Virus record (IMG/VR): IMGVR_UViG_2718218304_000001
Span: 32,001 to 96,000 of that record
Origin: a virus
Lineage: Duplodnaviria; Heunggongvirae; Uroviricota; Caudoviricetes
Strand: one strand, 5' to 3'
Length of the DNA: 64,000 bases
Position numbers and translations under genes: made by a program. This document shows, piece by piece, positions 16,737 through 58,417 of this stretch. Every line of letters begins with the position of its first letter. Within the stretch, counting starts at the first letter, position 1. Under the pieces are notes generated by a model. It was not told the origin of the DNA, made no database searches, and was given only the letters and a program-made list of their open reading frames with translations.

Positions 16737-17033
16737 GTGTTTTTCCTAATGCTTAAACAAGTTGTTTTCTTATTGGCTTTATTGTGATGTGGCATAAAAG
16801 GGGAGCAAGCTAAACGTAAAGGTGCAAACTCTCTATTTCGGTCAACGAAACACAAGGGCCATTTGGCCCTTGTCATTAACACGTTGCTTTACGGACTAGC
16901 GGATAAGCGAAGTAGATCGCCAGACCAATGAGGACGCCATCAGAAATGACAGACATCATCTTTCCCGTAAAATCCACCAACACCGCTATCACCAGAAGAG
17001 CAATGACGGTCACAAGCCGGAATCTCTCAAGCA

Positions 17034-17459
17034 TTAGAGATAAGCATCCAGTGACAACTGAAGCGCCTGGGCGATCTTTTTCAGCGCCTGCTCTTCTGGT
17101 TCATCAATGCCGTCCTGGTCGGCAATATCAAGGCACAGACACAGTACATCTACTGCATCATCAGTCCCGGCCACATCCGCCAGCTCACGTAAAGCCTGGG
17201 CATTAGCACGGCGCGGTGAGGCTTCGTATTGAGCGCGGATATTGGCGCTCATCTGGGCAATCTCACCAGCAAAAGGAGAAAATGCAGGCAGAGCTGCAAT
17301 TGTTTTCTCAAGAATGGAAATTTCTTTTGCATCGCATGTACCGTTGGCATAGGAGATCATGTACCCGCCCCACACGGTGGCTTCAACCGCATCACGGTTC
17401 TCCATTTTTTTGACTTCGATAACAGCTTTACGAGTTTTCTTTTTGAAGAAACCTAACAT
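17034..17459 (-). CDS. TerB-like (tellurite-resistance TerB family) domain protein
   Basis: Acidic helical protein with TerB-like pattern (..DAKEISILEKTIAAL..DVLCLCLDIADQDG..EEQALKKIA); motif-1 upstream. Confidence 0.45.
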   Translation of the reverse strand: MLGFFKKKTRKAVIEVKKMENRDAVEATVWGGYMISYANGTCDAKEISILEKTIAALPAFSPFAGEIAQMSANIRAQYEASPRRANAQALRELADVAGTDDAVDVLCLCLDIADQDGIDEPEEQALKKIAQALQLSLDAYL

Positions 17460-31495: not shown

Positions 31496-33401
31496 AGCTG
31501 CGCCCCTCTTTAACTTCCAGCGTAATAGTTTCCCGGAACCACGACTTCATCTCTTTATGGGAGATAATCAGCACAGTACCTCGCTCGCGAGCTTTGGACT
31601 CCAGAATACCCATGAGGCGTTCAAGACCGGCTGTATCGAGTGCATCGTCAATTTCGTCGCCGATAAACAAATCGATGTTTTTACTCGCCCGGTTACTAAC
31701 CAGATCCTGCAATGCCAAAGAACACGCAATGCGAACCTTCCGCTTCTCACCACCAGAGAGGGTTTGGAACGACTTACTTGAACCTTTCTTCTGCACACTA
31801 ATGTTGAATTTGTCGCGATACTCACCTTTTTTAGTGACATCCATCGTCGACCACTCAGCAGTAATATTCCCGTCAGACAACGTATTGAGATACTCGGCAG
31901 TGCGTGTATTCAGGAAAGGCGTAACAGACGTCAAAATATGAGAACGCACCCCGGCAGGAGAGTAGACCTGACGAGCTTTTTCCAATAGCAACGTTTGTTC
32001 CTGAATAGCCTTCAACTCATCTTTTAAGGACTTGAAGGTAGACTTACTGGATACCAGGTTATCTTCGTGTCTGGCGATAAGAGCAATAAACGGATTAATC
32101 TCTTTTGATATACGATCGACCTCAGTACGAGCACGAGTCACAAGAGACTCAATAGCAACAACCTCCTTCTCACGATGACGCAAAGATGAGAGTTGTTTCG
32201 TAAGCTCTTCAATCCGGGCAATGATAGCCGTTACATCAGGTGTCGTTTTAACAAGGGCAGACTCAATGCTTAACGCTTTCTCAAGATTCGTTTTGTGTTT
32301 AGCCATTGCCTCTGCAAGTGTCTTCGCCTGACCAATTTCCTGACGTGCTTGTTCAATGAAATTCTCCTTCACCGTTGATAGATCTTCTTCGCAGTAGGCT
32401 TTGCCACAAGTAGGGCATGGTGATCCCACTTTAGTACCAACCTCTTCTGCTTTGGTCTTAAAATTACGCGCGCGGTTCATTGCATCAGCCTGACTATTTT
32501 CTGTAGCTTTGATGCTTGCCCGAATATCAGTTATCGCACCACGAACTTTGAGCAACTTGGCGTCATGTTCTTCTTTTGAGGCTAACTTTTTGCGCTCACT
32601 TTCGATTGCCTTCTCGGTATCACGTATCTGTTCGGGAAGAGTGCGGATCTCAAGTTCAACTTCCGTTAACTCAACTTCGGCACTGGCCAGCCCAGCCAGG
32701 GCATCGTCATAACGTTTAGAACGCTCTTGCTCCCATGATTCAGAGGAGGCTTTCGCTGACTCAATTTCTGACTGTGTTGCCTCAATGGTCGAGATTGTCG
32801 ACTCCAATTTGGTTTTAACCACATCCATACGTGCGGCAGCTGCATTAGCTCGCTCACGAGCAATAGCGTAGGCGCGTGTCAGTCTGTCAACGCCAGCGGC
32901 TTCTTCTACGATGGTTTTGAGGTTTTTGTCGGACATTCCAGGTAAATCTGGCATAGCTTCTTGGCTCGCATAGATGGAAGCCATGAAAACCTCTTTAGAT
33001 GCACCGATCAGACGCTCGACGAACTCCTGCGTCAGCGCATCTTTGCCTTTCGTCATATCGCCATCTTCACCACGAACGATAAGACGATTTTTGAACTCTT
33101 TGTGTTTACGGTGACGAATGATTGCGTATCTCTTGCCTTCATCCTCGATGGTTACTGCAACACGACAGTTCTTTTCATGGTCGGTAGACAACACATCGTC
33201 ACCCTTCACACCATGAGCTGTTTCGCCATAAAGACACCACATCAGGCTATTCATTAGAGTTGACTTTCCAGAGCCATTACTTGATGCGGAACTATCATCA
33301 CTATTAACACCCTGAATGAGCACTAAACCACGCTGATCTAACTCGACCTCCGCGCTGGCGATAGCCATAAAATTCTCAACCTGGAGCTTTAAAAACTTCA
33401 T
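31485..33401 (-). CDS. SbcC/Rad50-like ATPase (recombination nuclease subunit)
   Basis: N-terminal Walker A GVNSDDSSASSNGSGKST, long coiled-coil middle, C-terminal LSGGE signature. Confidence 0.8.
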   Translation of the reverse strand: MKFLKLQVENFMAIASAEVELDQRGLVLIQGVNSDDSSASSNGSGKSTLMNSLMWCLYGETAHGVKGDDVLSTDHEKNCRVAVTIEDEGKRYAIIRHRKHKEFKNRLIVRGEDGDMTKGKDALTQEFVERLIGASKEVFMASIYASQEAMPDLPGMSDKNLKTIVEEAAGVDRLTRAYAIARERANAAAARMDVVKTKLESTISTIEATQSEIESAKASSESWEQERSKRYDDALAGLASAEVELTEVELEIRTLPEQIRDTEKAIESERKKLASKEEHDAKLLKVRGAITDIRASIKATENSQADAMNRARNFKTKAEEVGTKVGSPCPTCGKAYCEEDLSTVKENFIEQARQEIGQAKTLAEAMAKHKTNLEKALSIESALVKTTPDVTAIIARIEELTKQLSSLRHREKEVVAIESLVTRARTEVDRISKEINPFIALIARHEDNLVSSKSTFKSLKDELKAIQEQTLLLEKARQVYSPAGVRSHILTSVTPFLNTRTAEYLNTLSDGNITAEWSTMDVTKKGEYRDKFNISVQKKGSSKSFQTLSGGEKRKVRIACSLALQDLVSNRASKNIDLFIGDEIDDALDTAGLERLMGILESKARERGTVLIISHKEMKSWFRETITLEVKEGRSYVV

Positions 33402-45503: not shown

Positions 45504-45832
45504 TGATGCCCGCCAATTGGCGGGCATCTGTTCTCTGTAAAGGTGTCTGGCATCGTCTGGTTCGTTAACGTTTACTAAACCAATGGTGACAAAAATTAGT
45601 TATCTTTGAAAAATAAAGGTTGCATGAAAAGAAGGGGTATGCGTTAATAGCATCGTTGGTTTGCAAGACAGACCTTATGTAAGCAGTTTTAGTAAAGCAG
45701 TCTCAGTTCAGTGTTATCTTCTGATTTCCCTTCTTCGTGAGTCTCCTCCTTAAGTGCCTAAGTAAGTCCCAATCTATACAGATCAAATTCTCGCCGCACT
45801 ATGTGGCTCACAAAATTAAGAAGGTAATATCT

Positions 45833-46048
45833 ATGTCTAATAAAATGACTGGTTTAGTAAAATGGTTTAACTCTGATAAAGGCTTTGGCTTTATTTCTCC
45901 TGCTGATGGCAGTAAAGATGTTTTTGTACATTTTTCGGCAATTCAGAGTAATAATTTCCGCACTTTGGAAGAAGGCCAGCAGGTCGAATTCTCTATCGAG
46001 AATGGGGCTAAAGGCCCAGCAGCAGCAAATGTCGTTGCTCTAAGCTGA
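45833..46048 (+). CDS. cold-shock protein, CspA family
   Basis: [23 protein letters not shown]...VFVHFSAIQ; start refined from the track (45737) to the ATG at 45833, preceded by AAGG and a long 5' leader. Confidence 0.85.
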
Positions 46049-46326
46049 TTCAACGCTGATGATCCTCATTTCTACAATAACGAAGACGGTGTAAGCCTGA
46101 GTGGATAGATTTGTAGGATTGTACAAGTTGAATAAATTAGCATGGTAAGGCCATGCTAATTAAATCGACACAACGGCCAGTTTATTCCATAAAAGTGAAT
46201 TGCCCATTGTGGCGAAATGCGGGGTTGCCGCATGAATAGTCAAAGGCAGAAGCTAACTGCCGGCATGGCAAAACAAAGTGCGTAAGAGGAGTGACTTCCT
46301 CAACAAGCGCCATAATTCTTTATAAA

Positions 46327-54040: not shown

Positions 54041-54427
54041 ATGTCTGATAACAAGATTGAATTTATAGAAAGTCGCTACGCTGCTTTTATCGCAGGGTTG
54101 ATTGAATCCTCACCTATGAGTCAGGCCCAAATAGCCAGACTTATTGGTTATAAAAATGCCAACAACCTTTCTTTAATTAAAAGTGGCAAAATTCCTTTGC
54201 CTATCGATAAGGTTCGTCCGTTGGCGCTGGCGCTGGGTATTGAGCCAAGTCGTCTTATGATGATGGTGCTGGAAGAACGCCAACCTGAACTCGCAGCATT
54301 TTTATACAAAGAAGGCACCGCTCCTCTTAACGAGGACGAAAAACAGGTTCTTGCTGCATATAACGAGCGATTCGGTAAAGAGAAAGGCGCATCACAAAAG
54401 GTTGTTGAGGCCATAAAGTCTCTATGA
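54041..54427 (+). CDS. helix-turn-helix (XRE-like) DNA-binding regulator
   Basis: MSQAQIARLIGYKNANNLSLIKSGK is HTH-like; convergent with the recombinase gene. Confidence 0.5.
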   Translation: MSDNKIEFIESRYAAFIAGLIESSPMSQAQIARLIGYKNANNLSLIKSGKIPLPIDKVRPLALALGIEPSRLMMMVLEERQPELAAFLYKEGTAPLNEDEKQVLAAYNERFGKEKGASQKVVEAIKSL

Positions 54428-55525
54428 AAAATTTACACGAATAAGCTCTGTTGATAGACGATCTCCCTTGAATTTGTGGTCAATTTCGTCTAAATCCGGT
54501 TGCTCTACGATTGATGCGATGTACGTCGAGAAACTTTCTAAGGCGTCTCGCATCTCGTCCATATAATCGTGCCGGTCGTAGACTCGATCTATCCCCTCAA
54601 GACTGTGGTTCATGATTTTGCGTGATACCTCCTGGCTTATGCCTAATGCTGGGAAGTAACTACGCGCAGTACGGCGCAAGTCTCGGGGTGTAAATGGCTC
54701 AAGCTCCATCAGTTCTGGTCGTTCCAGAATACGACGTAATGCCTGGGCTATTGCCACTTTAGACATAGGAAGGTCTTTCCCGATTTTTTTATTCGAAGGC
54801 ACGAGCCACTGGCTGTCTTTACCATATTCGAACAACTCTTCAATACAAGTGCGCATTAATGAGCTTAAAGGCAGAGAATGCTCACGGGCAGATTTGTTCC
54901 TCTTGCCTTGATTCCAAACCCCACGCTTAAGATTGAACTCACTTTTTTTAGCCCGCAGTACTTCGTCAGGTCGTCTTGCGGATACAAGACATAGCCTGGC
55001 AGCCCATTTTGTACCAGCACACACATTGAAGTAGTCCCATATATTCCAGAACACCCATACCTCTGCGTCGGTCAGCTTCCGCTCGCGAGGTGTGGGCTTT
55101 GCGCCACCGGCAACTTTGTTAAGTGACATATCGTTTAACGGTGACACGTCTATCATCCCCTGGAAGGCGCACCAGCTAAGGAACTGCTTCATCAGAGAGA
55201 AAACGCGGCGGCCCATAACAATTTTGCCATCCAGTATTAGTGGGTTGACCAGTTGGTTCACCATGAACCTATTAATGTCACTTACTTTTACATCGGCAAT
55301 GTGCGGCAAAACATGTATCAAAATACAATGAACAGCGATCTCTGGCCGACGTCTGGTTATCAGCAGAGATAAGCGAGTGAATAACATGAATGCGTCCGAG
55401 AATCTCATGTCATTGCTAACCTGCGAGATCATAACGGCCTGCATTTGAGATGCTCTTTCGAGATACTCTATCGCCTCTTTTGAGGTGTTCTCCGCAGCGC
55501 GTGCTCTGTCAAAGCTATTTTTCAT
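54422..55525 (-). CDS. tyrosine site-specific recombinase (integrase or resolvase)
   Basis: C-terminal catalytic region with RDLRRTA...MNHS...RVYDRHDY (R..H..R..Y). Confidence 0.8.
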   Translation of the reverse strand: MKNSFDRARAAENTSKEAIEYLERASQMQAVMISQVSNDMRFSDAFMLFTRLSLLITRRRPEIAVHCILIHVLPHIADVKVSDINRFMVNQLVNPLILDGKIVMGRRVFSLMKQFLSWCAFQGMIDVSPLNDMSLNKVAGGAKPTPRERKLTDAEVWVFWNIWDYFNVCAGTKWAARLCLVSARRPDEVLRAKKSEFNLKRGVWNQGKRNKSAREHSLPLSSLMRTCIEELFEYGKDSQWLVPSNKKIGKDLPMSKVAIAQALRRILERPELMELEPFTPRDLRRTARSYFPALGISQEVSRKIMNHSLEGIDRVYDRHDYMDEMRDALESFSTYIASIVEQPDLDEIDHKFKGDRLSTELIRVNFS

Positions 55526-55981: not shown

Positions 55982-56328
55982 TGCTTTGCCTCATGCCACT
56001 TTTGCTTCAGGAGATAGCCTTCCAGGGGCCAGATTTGATCGATAGCATCTTTTCGAGCGTACTCGCGACCAACATCAAAGTTGAAGATTTCTGGTCTTAC
56101 GCACGCAGATTTTCCCGTTACGGTATATCCATTTTTGAGAACCATAACGCAGAACGTTAAGAGTTTTAACGACTCATGACCTTTGTCGATATCTGTTTTT
56201 GAATTGTAAACAGAGATGAAGTTATCCCCGTGGCTGGCATCATATGCAGTGAAATAATGTTCACTTTGAATGAGTTGTTCAATGTGTTCAGGGGTGACTT
56301 TTAGTGGTGTGTTATCTTTGCTGGTCAT
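55978..56328 (-). CDS. hypothetical protein
   Basis: ORF track; stop/start overlap with the glutaredoxin-like gene. Confidence 0.3.
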   Translation of the reverse strand: MTSKDNTPLKVTPEHIEQLIQSEHYFTAYDASHGDNFISVYNSKTDIDKGHESLKLLTFCVMVLKNGYTVTGKSACVRPEIFNFDVGREYARKDAIDQIWPLEGYLLKQKWHEAKQ

Positions 56329-56549
56329 TATTTCTTCCTACAAAGTTCGTAGACTTGACTCTTTCAGTTGCAAAAAAGGGGCCGAAGCCCCTTTGAATTT
56401 TGCGCTGAAAAAAAGTGTTGCTAGGATGTTAGCAAGCTATGGTTAAGAACGTCTGCCGTAATTGTCTATCACAGCGTTGAGCGGTCTGGTTTATGTTAGC
56501 GGAGTCTTAATCTGGGTGATTAAAAGGCCAAACCGCTCAACGCTGTGTC

Positions 56550-56636
56550 TGGCGGAGAGTAATGGAATCGAACCATCATCGCTTGCGCAATGGGACGGTT
56601 TTCAAGACCGCTTGAGCACCATGCTCCCTACTCTCC
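56550..56636 (-). tRNA. tRNA-Ser (anticodon UGA), long variable arm
   Basis: Hand-folded: acceptor GGAGAGT/ACTCTCC, anticodon loop CUUGAAA, T-loop TTCGATT, encoded CCA; D-arm is atypical. Confidence 0.5.
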
Positions 56637-56956
56637 AGCTATTGTGATGGTCGGTGCTGAACTCCGACACAGGGTTGTAGCAAGCCCCGCAAAGCGCGCA
56701 CTACTGTAGTTGCGGCACATCAGCCTGTGCATTCATCACAACGGTAAGATCACTACCTTTCGACCAGTCATTGTGCACATGAACGACGATTAACCGTAAT
56801 GATCTTATCGTTGTGTTGTGAAGCCAGATGCTTATCTTCTGGTTGCTTCAAAGAGCTGCACTTCCTCACAACGGTAAGAGCACTGGTCTGACTCTATCGA
56901 TTTACGGGCTTGTGGGTCAGTATCGCCGATTCGCCCAATGCTCTTACCTGTTGTGT

Positions 56957-57032
56957 TGGTGCCGGTTAACGGGATCGAACCGCTGACATCCTGCTTACAA
57001 GGCAGACGCTCTACCAACTGAGCTAAACCGGC
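56957..57032 (-). tRNA. tRNA-Thr (anticodon UGU)
   Basis: Hand-folded: acceptor GCCGGTT/AACCGGC, D-arm GCTCAGTTGGTAGAGC, anticodon loop CUUGUAA, T-loop TTCGATC, CCA. Confidence 0.7.
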
Positions 57033-57036
57033 AATT

Positions 57037-57123
57037 TGGTGGGGAGTGATGGAGTCGAACCACCCGAGTCGCAATGACAGTAGATTTACAGTCTACCCCG
57101 CTGCCCCTACGGACTAACTCCCC
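57037..57123 (-). tRNA. tRNA-Tyr (anticodon GUA), long variable arm
   Basis: Hand-folded: acceptor GGGGAGT/ACTCCCC, anticodon loop CUGUAAA, T-loop TTCGACT, CCA. Confidence 0.6.
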
Positions 57124-57128
57124 TAAAT

Positions 57129-57203
57129 TGGCGATGGTGGGTGGATTCGAACCACCGACCAGTTGGTTAACAGCCAACTGCTCTACCGCTGAGCTACACC
57201 ATC
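57129..57203 (-). tRNA. tRNA-Asn (anticodon GUU)
   Basis: Hand-folded: acceptor GATGGTG/CACCATC, D-arm GCTCAGCGGTAGAGC, anticodon loop CUGUUAA, T-loop TTCGAAT, CCA. Confidence 0.7.
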
Positions 57204-57981
57204 AATTCAGCACTGCCAGTATTTATTACTCAACAGTGCCAATCGCGACGGTTTAGTTTCTGCCAGGAAACGCACCGCTACTTGCACTTTTCGTTAGTGC
57301 CAGACGCTTTCGACTTCGCTCAATAGTAGAAGGCAAAATCTTTAAGTAGATGATGTTTCTGAGGACAGCACCTACTTTGTAATTTATACAATGTGATGTA
57401 TGGAATCATTTGTTGTGAAAACAGGCACCAATGGCAACAGTGGTTAAACCTACACAACAATCCTGTCTTCACAACGTTGAGGCCACTACTCCGATTGAAT
57501 GTTTGCCCAACATGTTACATATCAACGCTCGCCGGTATCTCTGTGAATAGAACCTTAGAATTGATAAAAATGTAATGGCCTCAACGTTGTGTGCTGGCTA
57601 ACCATACCAGCCGGGCTACGTCGCCGCTTTTTAACCCAGTATAAACGACATAATTGAACAAAATGACGTAACAGGATGGGCGGTCAGTGGCTAAGAATCC
57701 GGGAGTCATATGGAGTTGAAAATATACCAACCGCCCATTCTGTTACTTCATCGGAGGGAACATGAATGTTCCCTCCTGCGTTCTGCAATCACACTCGCTC
57801 AGTGTGTCCCATTTCGGTAACGAGGCTGGAAACTGACCTCGCTGGTGTTTGGCTTATTAGGCTACTGCCAGATAGACTTCTTCGTTTGCACTTGTATTTA
57901 AGTTCAAACAGTCGCGTCTCAACGAAAACAAAGTCATCTTATACATAAAAGATAAGTAAGTAAATACTTATCACCATGTTT

Positions 57982-58272
57982 TTATTCGGTTGTGACTTTT
58001 TTGATCAAGGCCACTCTACGACTAGGTGTTCTTGTGATGGTGGCAGTGAATCGTTTCGCTTGGATAGTAATGGTTTCGTTCTCCTTAAGTTGCCCGTAGC
58101 GAGTTTCCACCAGGGTGCCAAGACGCCACAGACCATCATCGATACGTTTATGACTGGCAAATTTAATCAGCAGCAGTTTTACGACTAACTGACCTACGTA
58201 AAAGGCGAATGCGACTCCGGCCGCTAAGAAATAGGTGGCCAACCACCAGTCCCAAGAAGTTAAATTGCTCAT
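57982..58272 (-). CDS. membrane-anchored hypothetical protein
   Basis: N-terminal hydrophobic helix (WWLATYFLAAGVAFAFYVGQLVV). Confidence 0.35.
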   Translation of the reverse strand: MSNLTSWDWWLATYFLAAGVAFAFYVGQLVVKLLLIKFASHKRIDDGLWRLGTLVETRYGQLKENETITIQAKRFTATITRTPSRRVALIKKVTTE

Positions 58273-58417
58273 TTTCTAACCTTTGTTTCATGAACTACCC
58301 GATACACACGCTTTCCGATGCACAGTGTTTTGGTTTTAAGTTCCTGCTTAATTAAATCACGACAGATGCCGAAGCCGATAAGGAAGCCACCCATAAAAGC
58401 TAATGAGATGTATGGAA

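Follow-up and report, generated by a model that had tools for sequence, protein, structure and literature searches.

What are the long inverted repeats that lie among the transfer RNA (tRNA) genes of IMG/VR virus record IMGVR_UViG_2718218304_000001? The window analysed here is the 64,000-nt stretch at positions 32,001 to 96,000 of this record (Caudoviricetes), which we take to come from an SSU5/pHCM2-like Escherichia coli phage-plasmid; the 1.5 kb around its tRNA/hairpin cluster match E. coli plasmids of 101-120 kb at 100%. A first-pass annotation had noted inverted repeats between and beside the tRNAs and had proposed small stable RNAs, processing signals or decayed tRNA genes as their nature. 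The comparative analysis described below suggests that the repeats are the stems of one structured module, H, which alternates with a second module, L, and that the two constitute what appears to be a new RNA family, although the theme of companion RNAs in phage tRNA clusters is itself already known. The annotation had missed the second module, the alternation of the two with 6-mers in common, and the fact that phage P1 carries the family.

Alternating H and L modules on the tRNA strand

All four of the annotated inverted repeats are present in the window, and their hairpins recur in related DNA. Each H hairpin begins CACA(A/G)CG and ends CG(Y)TGTG, and each has a stem of 20 bp (Table 1). The two hairpins between tRNA-Ser and tRNA-Thr, previously described as ~100 nt long with 18-bp stems, exist as hairpins B and C, which are shorter and have longer stems than stated. 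Similarly, the 14-bp stem placed at 56470..56548 beside tRNA-Ser and the 15-bp perfect repeat placed at 57468..57590 are hairpins A and D, in which the pairing extends to 20 bp, the latter with one mismatch, and the ends are shifted. The signal lies in the paired arrangement and not in the frequency of a motif: TCACAACG by itself shows no enrichment (4 copies in the window, with 2.5 expected), and CACA(A/G)C...G(C/T)TGTG pairs with complementary arms occur only at these four places in the 64 kb. A covariance model of the stem, R1, found no further copy in the 64 kb, the next best match scoring 13.5 bits compared with 43-47 bits for hairpins A to C. The model favours the minus strand, that of the tRNAs, by 7-8 bits (46.4 versus 39.7 for A, 47.2 versus 39.1 for B and 43.0 versus 34.6 for C); hairpin D was missed, probably owing to the insertion of its large loop. 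The H hairpins are not chance structures, recurring as they do, with compensatory changes in the stem, in 61 IMG/VR loci and hundreds of plasmids.

The placement of H is tight. In general it lies 0-2 nt past a tRNA or an L module; on the minus strand, hairpin C begins 1 nt past the CCA of tRNA-Thr and hairpin A 2 nt past that of tRNA-Ser, and in Klebsiella relatives H and the CCA of tRNA-Asn have 2 nt in common. None of the H hairpins is followed by a U-run, so that they do not have the form of intrinsic terminators, and the 3' flanks (AGGAAG, AUGAAU, AUAGAC and AAGACA) contain no CCA. The loop of hairpin A holds a covarying sub-hairpin beside a conserved, T-arm/acceptor-like element, AAGACUCCGC, and the two are retained across three diverged subtypes. 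Hairpin D orthologues are 112-122 nt long, with stems that covary (GGCC / AGCC-GGCT / GACC-GGTC) and a conserved CACAGAG in the loop.

L is the conserved unit between the GTTGTG that ends one H and the next CACAAY. The long L of the window (56641-56742) is cloverleaf-like: its closing stem encloses a 5' hairpin with the loop GGCUGA, two central arms and a 3' hairpin with the loop AGUUCAGCA, and the two named loops are complementary to one another (GCUGA/UCAGC). Other subfamilies have ACUGA/UCAGU at this place, and G·U intermediates are seen as well. The long-L consensus reads, from 5' to 3', a 9-bp closing stem (GUUGUGRUG/CAYCACAAY), a 3-nt junction, a 5-bp hairpin with the loop GRCUGA, one or two variable central arms, and a 5-bp hairpin with the loop AGWUCAGYA that abuts the closing stem. 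A model of L, R2, has a single match in the window, on the tRNA-sense strand, and 60 matches in related loci, which fall on one strand at each location and include the 58-nt short form and a second long subtype; the short-L copies of P1 and Klebsiella match it at 28-37 bits. A further short L-like module (57412-57475) has as its first 6 nt the last 6 nt of hairpin D, and a small stem on the other side of that hairpin (57593-57611) may be a degenerate L end.

H and L alternate, and neighbouring modules overlap by their CACAAC/GTTGTG ends: the GUUGUG that closes an H stem also opens the following L stem, just as the CACAAC at the close of an L stem opens the following H. At a given moment the RNA can adopt the H register or close the L stem in full, not both. 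Since all H stems share a CACAAC-GKURAG base, the 3' arm of one H should also be largely complementary to the 5' arm of the next and, with the H stems cut, each L would sit inside a longer stem. The spacer between tRNA-Thr and tRNA-Ser is an H-L-H-L chain bounded by CACAAY and RTTGTG, and its length in relatives runs from 8 nt in phage Cyrano, where only ACACAATT is retained, to 733 nt.

The H alignment comprised 33 distinct arms and was structure-guided, being built by pairing from the ends with well-paired copies selected. MAFFT mis-registered a bulged subfamily, and the alignment was remade with paired positions only and the bulged base removed. In this alignment 95.5% of stem cells are paired, compared with 79.9% when partners are shuffled and 34-54% when they are slid, and 13 of the 20 pairs have changed on both sides. 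Pair 17 is U·G in 14 arms, U:A in 10 and C:G in 9, and is never A·C. When events were counted by subfamily on the tRNA-sense strand, G·U exceeded A·C by 31 to 8 (p about 1e-4).

For L (18 sequences), 98.6% of cells are paired versus 23-50% with slid partners, and 9 of 24 pairs are compensatory. The loop-loop pair is G:C in 11 sequences, A:U in four and G·U in three; overall, G·U cells are many and non-pairs few. The L stem has independent support from covariation at its positions 7 and 9, which are not part of the 6-mer shared with H. Most of the strand evidence is carried by L. The internal helices of L and its loop-loop pairing make no sense as DNA sites, and overall the comparison favours a structure in the tRNA-sense (minus-strand) RNA rather than in the DNA. 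Two of the earlier proposals, small stable RNAs and processing signals, are both compatible with conserved RNA-level structures that are co-oriented with the tRNAs, given the covariation, the G·U strand bias and the 0-2-nt gap after the CCA.

The non-coding region is unusually structured in comparison with shuffled sequence (z = -6.4 for 56440-56960 and -6.8 for 57204-57800), and the H hairpins are present in the centroid structures. Upstream of hairpin D is a long hairpin of another sequence family (57663-57751), kept in phage Cyrano and in Klebsiella relatives, which in the predicted fold would be part of a structured leader. A perfect 11-bp palindrome, GGAGGGAACAT/ATGTTCCCTCC, adjoins this hairpin (region to 57776) and is also kept in Cyrano. 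At the opposite end of the region, two terminator-like hairpins were read by eye, and Rfam gives a local terminator-stem match at 56373-56396 on the minus strand. The open reading frames (ORFs) of the spacers are short, overlapping and on both strands, and none is convincing.

Table 1. Modules, tRNAs and other structures of the cluster, in window coordinates (MFE, minimum free energy)
Feature	Position	Strand	Description
Two intrinsic-terminator-like hairpins	56369-56436	-	UUGCUA-ACAUCC-UAGCAA + U7; GGGGC-UUCG-GCCCC + U6; read by eye
H module A	56470-56547	-	78 nt; 20-bp stem (19 Watson-Crick pairs, 1 mismatch); U17·G
tRNA-Ser (UGA), class II	56550-56636	-	ARAGORN; in Rfam only tRNA-Sec-like, 44.6 bits
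L module, long, cloverleaf-like	56641-56742	-	102 nt; 9-bp closing stem GUUGUGAUG/CAUCACAAU; R2 45.2 bits, minus strand only
H module B	56737-56815	-	79 nt; 20-bp stem, 2 mismatches; one A·C mismatch and U17·G listed
Short L module	56815-56872	-	58 nt; GUUGUGAGG...[CCAGA AGAUAAGCA UCUGG]CUUCACAAC; terminal 6-mers common to H modules C and B
H module C	56867-56955	-	89 nt; 20-bp stem, 1 mismatch, one-base bulge (A7); U17·G
tRNA-Thr (UGU)	56957-57032	-	ARAGORN and Rfam
tRNA-Tyr (GUA)	57037-57123	-	ARAGORN and Rfam
tRNA-Asn (GUU)	57129-57203	-	ARAGORN; Rfam tRNA 75.5 bits
Short L-like module	57412-57475	-	64 nt; 14-bp closing stem GUUGUGAAGACAGG / CCUGUUUUCACAAC; fold z-score -3.3
H module D	57470-57591	-	122 nt; 20-bp stem, 1 mismatch; U17·G on the minus strand; 82-nt structured loop
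Small stem (L-like)	57593-57611	-	5-bp stem, 9-nt loop; 1 nt before the CACAAC of hairpin D; resembles the L 3' hairpin; in the predicted fold
Long hairpin, other sequence family	57663-57751	-	22-bp stem, 45-nt loop; arms 91% complementary; in MFE and centroid folds

Relation to tRNAs and to known RNA families

The window contains exactly four tRNAs, all on the minus strand, which agrees with the earlier count: ARAGORN found these and no more at its default, 90% and 80% thresholds, and gave noise on both strands at 70%. Adjacent tRNAs are spaced 4-5 nt apart, to which the 0-2-nt gap before H is similar. Phage Cyrano (L002) is without tRNA-Tyr, a precise presence or absence of one cassette with its 4-5-nt spacers between genomes that are otherwise near-identical. 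At the position of tRNA-Asn, a P1-like plasmid (L006) has tRNA-Arg(UCU).

At gathering score, Rfam reported only tRNAs and the cspA thermoregulator in the window, and only tRNAs in 12 related loci; the families covered include C4, DicF, YrlA, GOLLD, ROOL, STAXI and ribozymes. Over the hairpins, relaxing the limit to E<=10 gave noise of 13-18 bits, and the tRNA model did not match H or L. The first-pass annotation had held that its small-RNA proposal would fall if tRNA and non-coding RNA search tools found nothing beyond the four tRNAs and no discrete small transcripts were detected, and the tools found nothing further; because the comparative evidence points to a new family, we count this outcome as absence from Rfam and not as a refutation. 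Full-text literature on P1, phage-plasmid tRNAs and non-coding RNA yielded no description of H or L, although the P1 genome paper may mention them.

The proposal of decayed tRNA genes finds weak support in relatives. Perfect T-arm hairpins (G-UUCGACU-C with a 5-6-bp stem) occur in the H loops of a few of them, and at the 80% threshold ARAGORN called one H module of P1 as a weak tRNA-Tyr. The modules of the window, however, are not tRNA-like by ARAGORN or Rfam, and they are under selection for structure and not decaying.

Some further resemblances to tRNA were seen. Hairpin A has a 3' arm, AGACCGCU, with complementarity to AGCGGUCU, which lies in the D/anticodon-stem region of the neighbouring tRNA-Ser (window 56470-56636; L007 2247-2381), and H 5' arms of the form GGUAAGAGCAYUGG resemble a generic tRNA D-arm segment, GGUAGAGCA. 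The former could be due to chance; an evolutionary origin or an alternative pairing is possible. In two related loci (L015 6990-7060 and, as the reverse complement, L020), H is followed by a fragment resembling a tRNA 3' half, GCGGGTTCAACTCCCGC...CGACCA, that ARAGORN does not call and that may be an attachment-site remnant or a degenerate tRNA.

Distribution and the P1 locus

Sequence related to the array is present in 741 of 5,426 complete E. coli genomes, about one in seven, at 767 plasmid places and 13 chromosomal ones, and in 1,057 PLSDB plasmids from Escherichia, Klebsiella, Salmonella and others. An exact-pattern scan for H gave the 61 IMG/VR loci mentioned above. A scan of species-representative genomes gave ~6 real members, all from Enterobacterales (Escherichia, Pantoea, Mixta, a Citrobacter chromosome and one uncultured genome), and six chance matches. 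H modules occur in two unrelated backbones, those of SSU5-like and P1-like phage-plasmids, and also in some Enterobacterales prophages.

In the P1 reference (NC_005856), H is found upstream of tRNA-Asn and from tRNA-Thr to tciA, within the C1-controlled ban operon and on the tRNA strand. Antisense to the H and L modules are the annotated plp and upl ORFs (P1 69472-70041; L070 1973-2542), of which plp overlaps the 3' end of tRNA-Thr; these ORFs are doubtful and may be spurious calls over a structured RNA locus. Just four short segments match between the window and the 5-kb P1 locus. Identity to P1 is 99/102 for the long L and 57/58 for the short L, compared with 72/76 for tRNA-Thr and 68/76 for tRNA-Asn, so that the L modules (97-98%) are more conserved than either tRNA (95% and 89%, respectively). 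Two explanations, not mutually exclusive, present themselves: transfer of the modules between phage-plasmid families, and very strong constraint on them. A second segment shared with P1 lies far from the tRNA array, at window 17029-17446, with 78% identity to the region of tciA (TerB-like).

A tRNA-free H/L array was found on a prophage-like contig (L075 3452-5691), directly downstream of a gene for a CI-like repressor (HTH_3 and Peptidase_S24) and on the same strand, a position that we take to be that of rexAB in lambda. This array lies upstream of an ORF without a Pfam match. The borders of the arrays are a variable, defence-type hotspot: downstream of the array, relatives carry an AbiGi-family antitoxin, AbiH or unrelated hypothetical genes (L005 3867-4132, L007 2540-3412, L003/L004), and at the same position the window has Gp49/GrxA.

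The wider neighbourhood in the window is annotated with a DnaB-like helicase, an ATP-dependent DNA ligase, a CobT-related protein, a Gp49-family protein, glutaredoxin and a tyrosine recombinase, nearly all on the minus strand. At 45655-46073 on the plus strand there is a full-length match to the thermoregulator of the cspA 5' untranslated region (RF01766, 185.7 bits), which implies a plasmid-borne cold-shock gene with its RNA thermosensor.

Proposed processing, alternative explanations and known systems

We put at about an even chance the reading that the ~1.4-kb gene-free stretch is a single structured minus-strand transcript, in which the tRNAs are interleaved with H and L, and that an endonuclease cuts at H to free the tRNAs and the L RNAs. 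In this scheme the 20-bp H duplexes abutting the tRNA CCA would be cut by a structure-specific endonuclease of the host. An enzyme of this type would be needed because a helix 0-2 nt past the CCA would give RNase E no single-stranded RNA to cut and would stand in the way of 3' exonucleases, as expected from the known course of tRNA processing in E. coli. The likeliest candidate would be RNase III, which cleaves helices of about 20 bp or more; the H stems, at 20 bp with no more than two mismatches or one bulge, are of the size of near-perfect double-stranded RNA (about two turns, or 20 bp and more) that such cleavage takes. RNase P would be the alternative, H holding the slot and spacing of the 'next tRNA'. 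That either enzyme acts on the transcript is purely inferential. Cleavage would part the tRNAs from the L RNAs and leave short tails for trimming by exonucleases, and the freed L RNAs, possibly together with the tops of H, would be small, stable, tRNA-like RNAs acting in trans.

Several observations weigh against this reading. In phage Cyrano, tRNA-Thr and tRNA-Ser are 8 nt apart with no H between them, and H is therefore dispensable for making these two tRNAs. H/L arrays without any tRNA exist; thus, tRNA processing is not the whole function. The H stems are without a 3' CCA-like tail, which argues against efficient recognition by RNase P. When pair 17 and two top-of-stem pairs are set aside, the ratio of G·U to A·C events in H falls to 10:7, and so H alone does not cleanly separate structure in RNA from structure in DNA. 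The manner in which both alignments were built inflates the percentage of paired cells, though not the diversity of pair types. Finally, a consensus scan, which also missed the terminators, found no sigma-70-like promoter in 56200-58300, and this leaves the transcription unit undefined. The absence of H between the two Cyrano tRNAs, together with the tRNA-free arrays, makes it probable that L and H RNAs are functional in themselves, and a tRNA-mimic or decoy role against host defences is an attractive, putative candidate.

That role can be taken further, in a form that extends the scheme of H cleavage and does not exclude it. L and some H loops would be tRNA mimics whose hypervariable middles are caught in an arms race and which titrate tRNA-targeting nucleases or tRNA-binding factors, H serving only as punctuation. 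The cloverleaf-like layout of L and its loop-loop pairing, reminiscent of the tRNA elbow, would suit such mimics, as would the T-arm hairpins in the H loops of some relatives and the weak tRNA-Tyr call in P1, but L has no conserved anticodon-loop-like element, its closing stem and 3' hairpin stack 14 bp where tRNA has 12 bp, and the Rfam tRNA model scores neither module even at E<10. The genomic setting is suggestive, in that array content is highly variable among close relatives (witness the range of the Thr-Ser spacer), the arrays of relatives adjoin variable defence genes (AbiH, AbiGi) and some arrays are free of tRNAs; mycobacterial tRNA arrays have been described as a putative anti-defence system (PMC12803027). 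The idea is nevertheless purely contextual, with no known target, and we regard it as unlikely. Equally speculative, and in our view rather improbable, is the proposal that H/L arrays are an unrecognized class of phage-plasmid and prophage RNA island. In it, a tandem battery of tRNA-mimic L modules, shuffled by recombination and set apart by H processing hairpins, would act with the tRNAs in the phage-host contest over immunity that targets tRNAs, perhaps as decoys or sponges; the plp/upl region of P1 would then be an RNA locus and not a protein-coding one.

Three further explanations assign no specific function to the RNA modules. The CACAAC/GTTGTG ends and 20-bp arms could be DNA sites at which cassettes are shuffled, the RNA structure being incidental, with integron attC sites, shufflon sfx repeats and T4 PeSL cassettes as analogues. 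Relatives differ from one another in whole modules, each delimited by CACAAY or RTTGTG; the Cyrano deletion leaves a single CACAAT, the modules are common to the unrelated P1-like and SSU5-like backbones, and a tyrosine recombinase gene lies ~1 kb off (54422-55525). The attC consensus is RYYYAAC/GTTRRRY, and the module termini hold AAC...GTT triplets as in attC, but the core TCACAAC / GTTGTGT fits that consensus at 5/7 positions and has neither extrahelical bases nor an unpaired central spacer. The recombinase, moreover, is a generic integrase with a weak PRK09692 match, no other NCBIfam model and no mark of IntI or Rci, and the 5-kb P1 stretch around the array has no annotated recombinase gene. 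Across more than 60 loci no H loop and no L body was seen turned around with respect to the tRNAs, and there is no inversion polymorphism; deletion products are without a hybrid hairpin; the helices and loop-loop covariation of L lack an explanation in terms of DNA sites; and ordinary homologous recombination would shuffle at the only conserved sequences anyway. We judge recombination sites to be a distinctly unlikely explanation. Two specific forms were rejected, inversion of the shufflon type because there are no orientation variants, and attC on its anatomy and the type of recombinase, the units between sites being RNAs and not promoterless ORF cassettes.

It is also conceivable, but highly unlikely, that the folding is structured filler, merely protecting an untranslated stretch from Rho termination and nucleases and so keeping downstream genes, ban in P1, expressed. 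The high overall degree of structure, the free variation of loops and middle segments, and the position of the P1 and L075 arrays as long leaders upstream of protein genes are as expected from filler. The boxA antitermination element has the consensus CGCUCUUA / UGCUCUUUAACAA, and some H 3' arms read UGCUCUUAC or UGCUCUUUC, which resemble it; the string is found in the 3' arm of about one-third of H subfamilies (window 56935-56955 and the alignment of relatives), where, however, it is buried in the 20-bp helix and may be a coincidence. Conserved termini, a fixed length of stem, loop motifs (GRCUGA, AGWUCAGYA, AAGACUCCGC) and 97% identity to P1 would all be superfluous in filler, and the unit in the window is closed by terminators and holds no downstream gene that would call for protection. 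The least credible possibility, to which we give very little weight, is that the modules are like miniature inverted-repeat transposable elements or are functionless, decaying tRNA pseudogenes. H does have 20-bp terminal inverted repeats around a variable core, copies are present or absent between relatives, and some loops hold tRNA-like fragments. Yet the flanks have no target-site duplications beyond the CACAAC that the array itself shares, and copies are confined to arrays, with none elsewhere in the 64 kb and only 13 of 780 E. coli matches on chromosomes. Compensatory changes and conserved wobble pairs point to structural selection, and the L modules are more conserved than the tRNAs.

Annotators should be warned by these findings about plp and upl, which may be no genes at all. 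A counter-defence role is increasingly ascribed to phage tRNA clusters, and their companion RNAs (T4 species 1 and 2, GOLLD, ROOL) have been unexplained for decades. The present family is compact, alignable and carried by a model phage; current annotation passes over it or, in P1, records two doubtful antisense ORFs in its place. With the genetics of P1 and the RNase mutants of E. coli readily available, the function of a companion RNA becomes directly testable.

Among the known systems that come close are the Y RNAs (YrlA/Yrn1), of 80-130 nt, which have a long end stem and a tRNA-like domain, can be polycistronic with a tRNA and can be cut by RNase P (PMC4201824). A long stem, a tRNA-like domain and co-transcription with tRNA would be points in common. 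As a candidate identity, however, Y RNA was rejected: the Ro-binding motif GNCGAAN0-1G (PMC4201824) is absent from the H 5' arms, CACAAC(A)GKURAG, and from the L 5' ends, GUUGUGRUGAAU. The Rfam YrlA model gave a lone match of 15 bits, which lay on true tRNAs. E. coli is not known to carry Ro60/Rsr. The 3'ETS-leuZ sponge of E. coli is a tRNA-operon spacer RNA, short and unstructured, that is set free as the operon is processed and binds Hfq and small RNAs; it would share with the present array the principle of a tRNA-operon spacer as an RNA in its own right, whereas here there are long helices and cloverleaf-like folds. The attC and sfx repeats are alike in their make-up: imperfect inverted repeats, 57-141 nt long, whose ends are conserved and whose middle varies, in which structure counts for more than sequence and which bound exchangeable cassettes. 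They are, however, DNA-level elements with a dedicated recombinase, and extrahelical bases, inversions, IntI/Rci and hybrid sites are all missing here.

Closest in logic, as far as the comparison allows, would be the RNase III stems of rrn and T7, the stable RNAs of the T4 tRNA cluster, and GOLLD/ROOL. The last two are RNAs of phages and prophages, 'often near tRNA islands' and highly structured (PMC12286853). Phage encoding, proximity to tRNAs and a high degree of structure are shared by H and L, but GOLLD and ROOL are single RNAs of 580-800 nt that form multimeric cages, as against tandem modules of 58-150 nt here, and their Rfam models do not match. T4 species 1 and 2 (rnaC and rnaD) are stable RNAs other than tRNA that are co-transcribed within the tRNA cluster of that phage. 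The likeness is one of location inside a phage tRNA cluster only, T4 having two single genes and not a modular, alternating and shuffled array. The RNase III stems of E. coli rrn and of the R sites in the T7 early region are duplexes of ~20 bp that flank or separate stable RNAs, with tRNAs in the same operon. The H stems differ from these in being stand-alone hairpins with large structured loops, in alternating with a second module and in having no sequence in common with them. They resemble them in the long duplexes of ~20 bp and in the predicted tRNA-bearing transcript, and the arms of neighbouring H modules could likewise pair around the unit between them.

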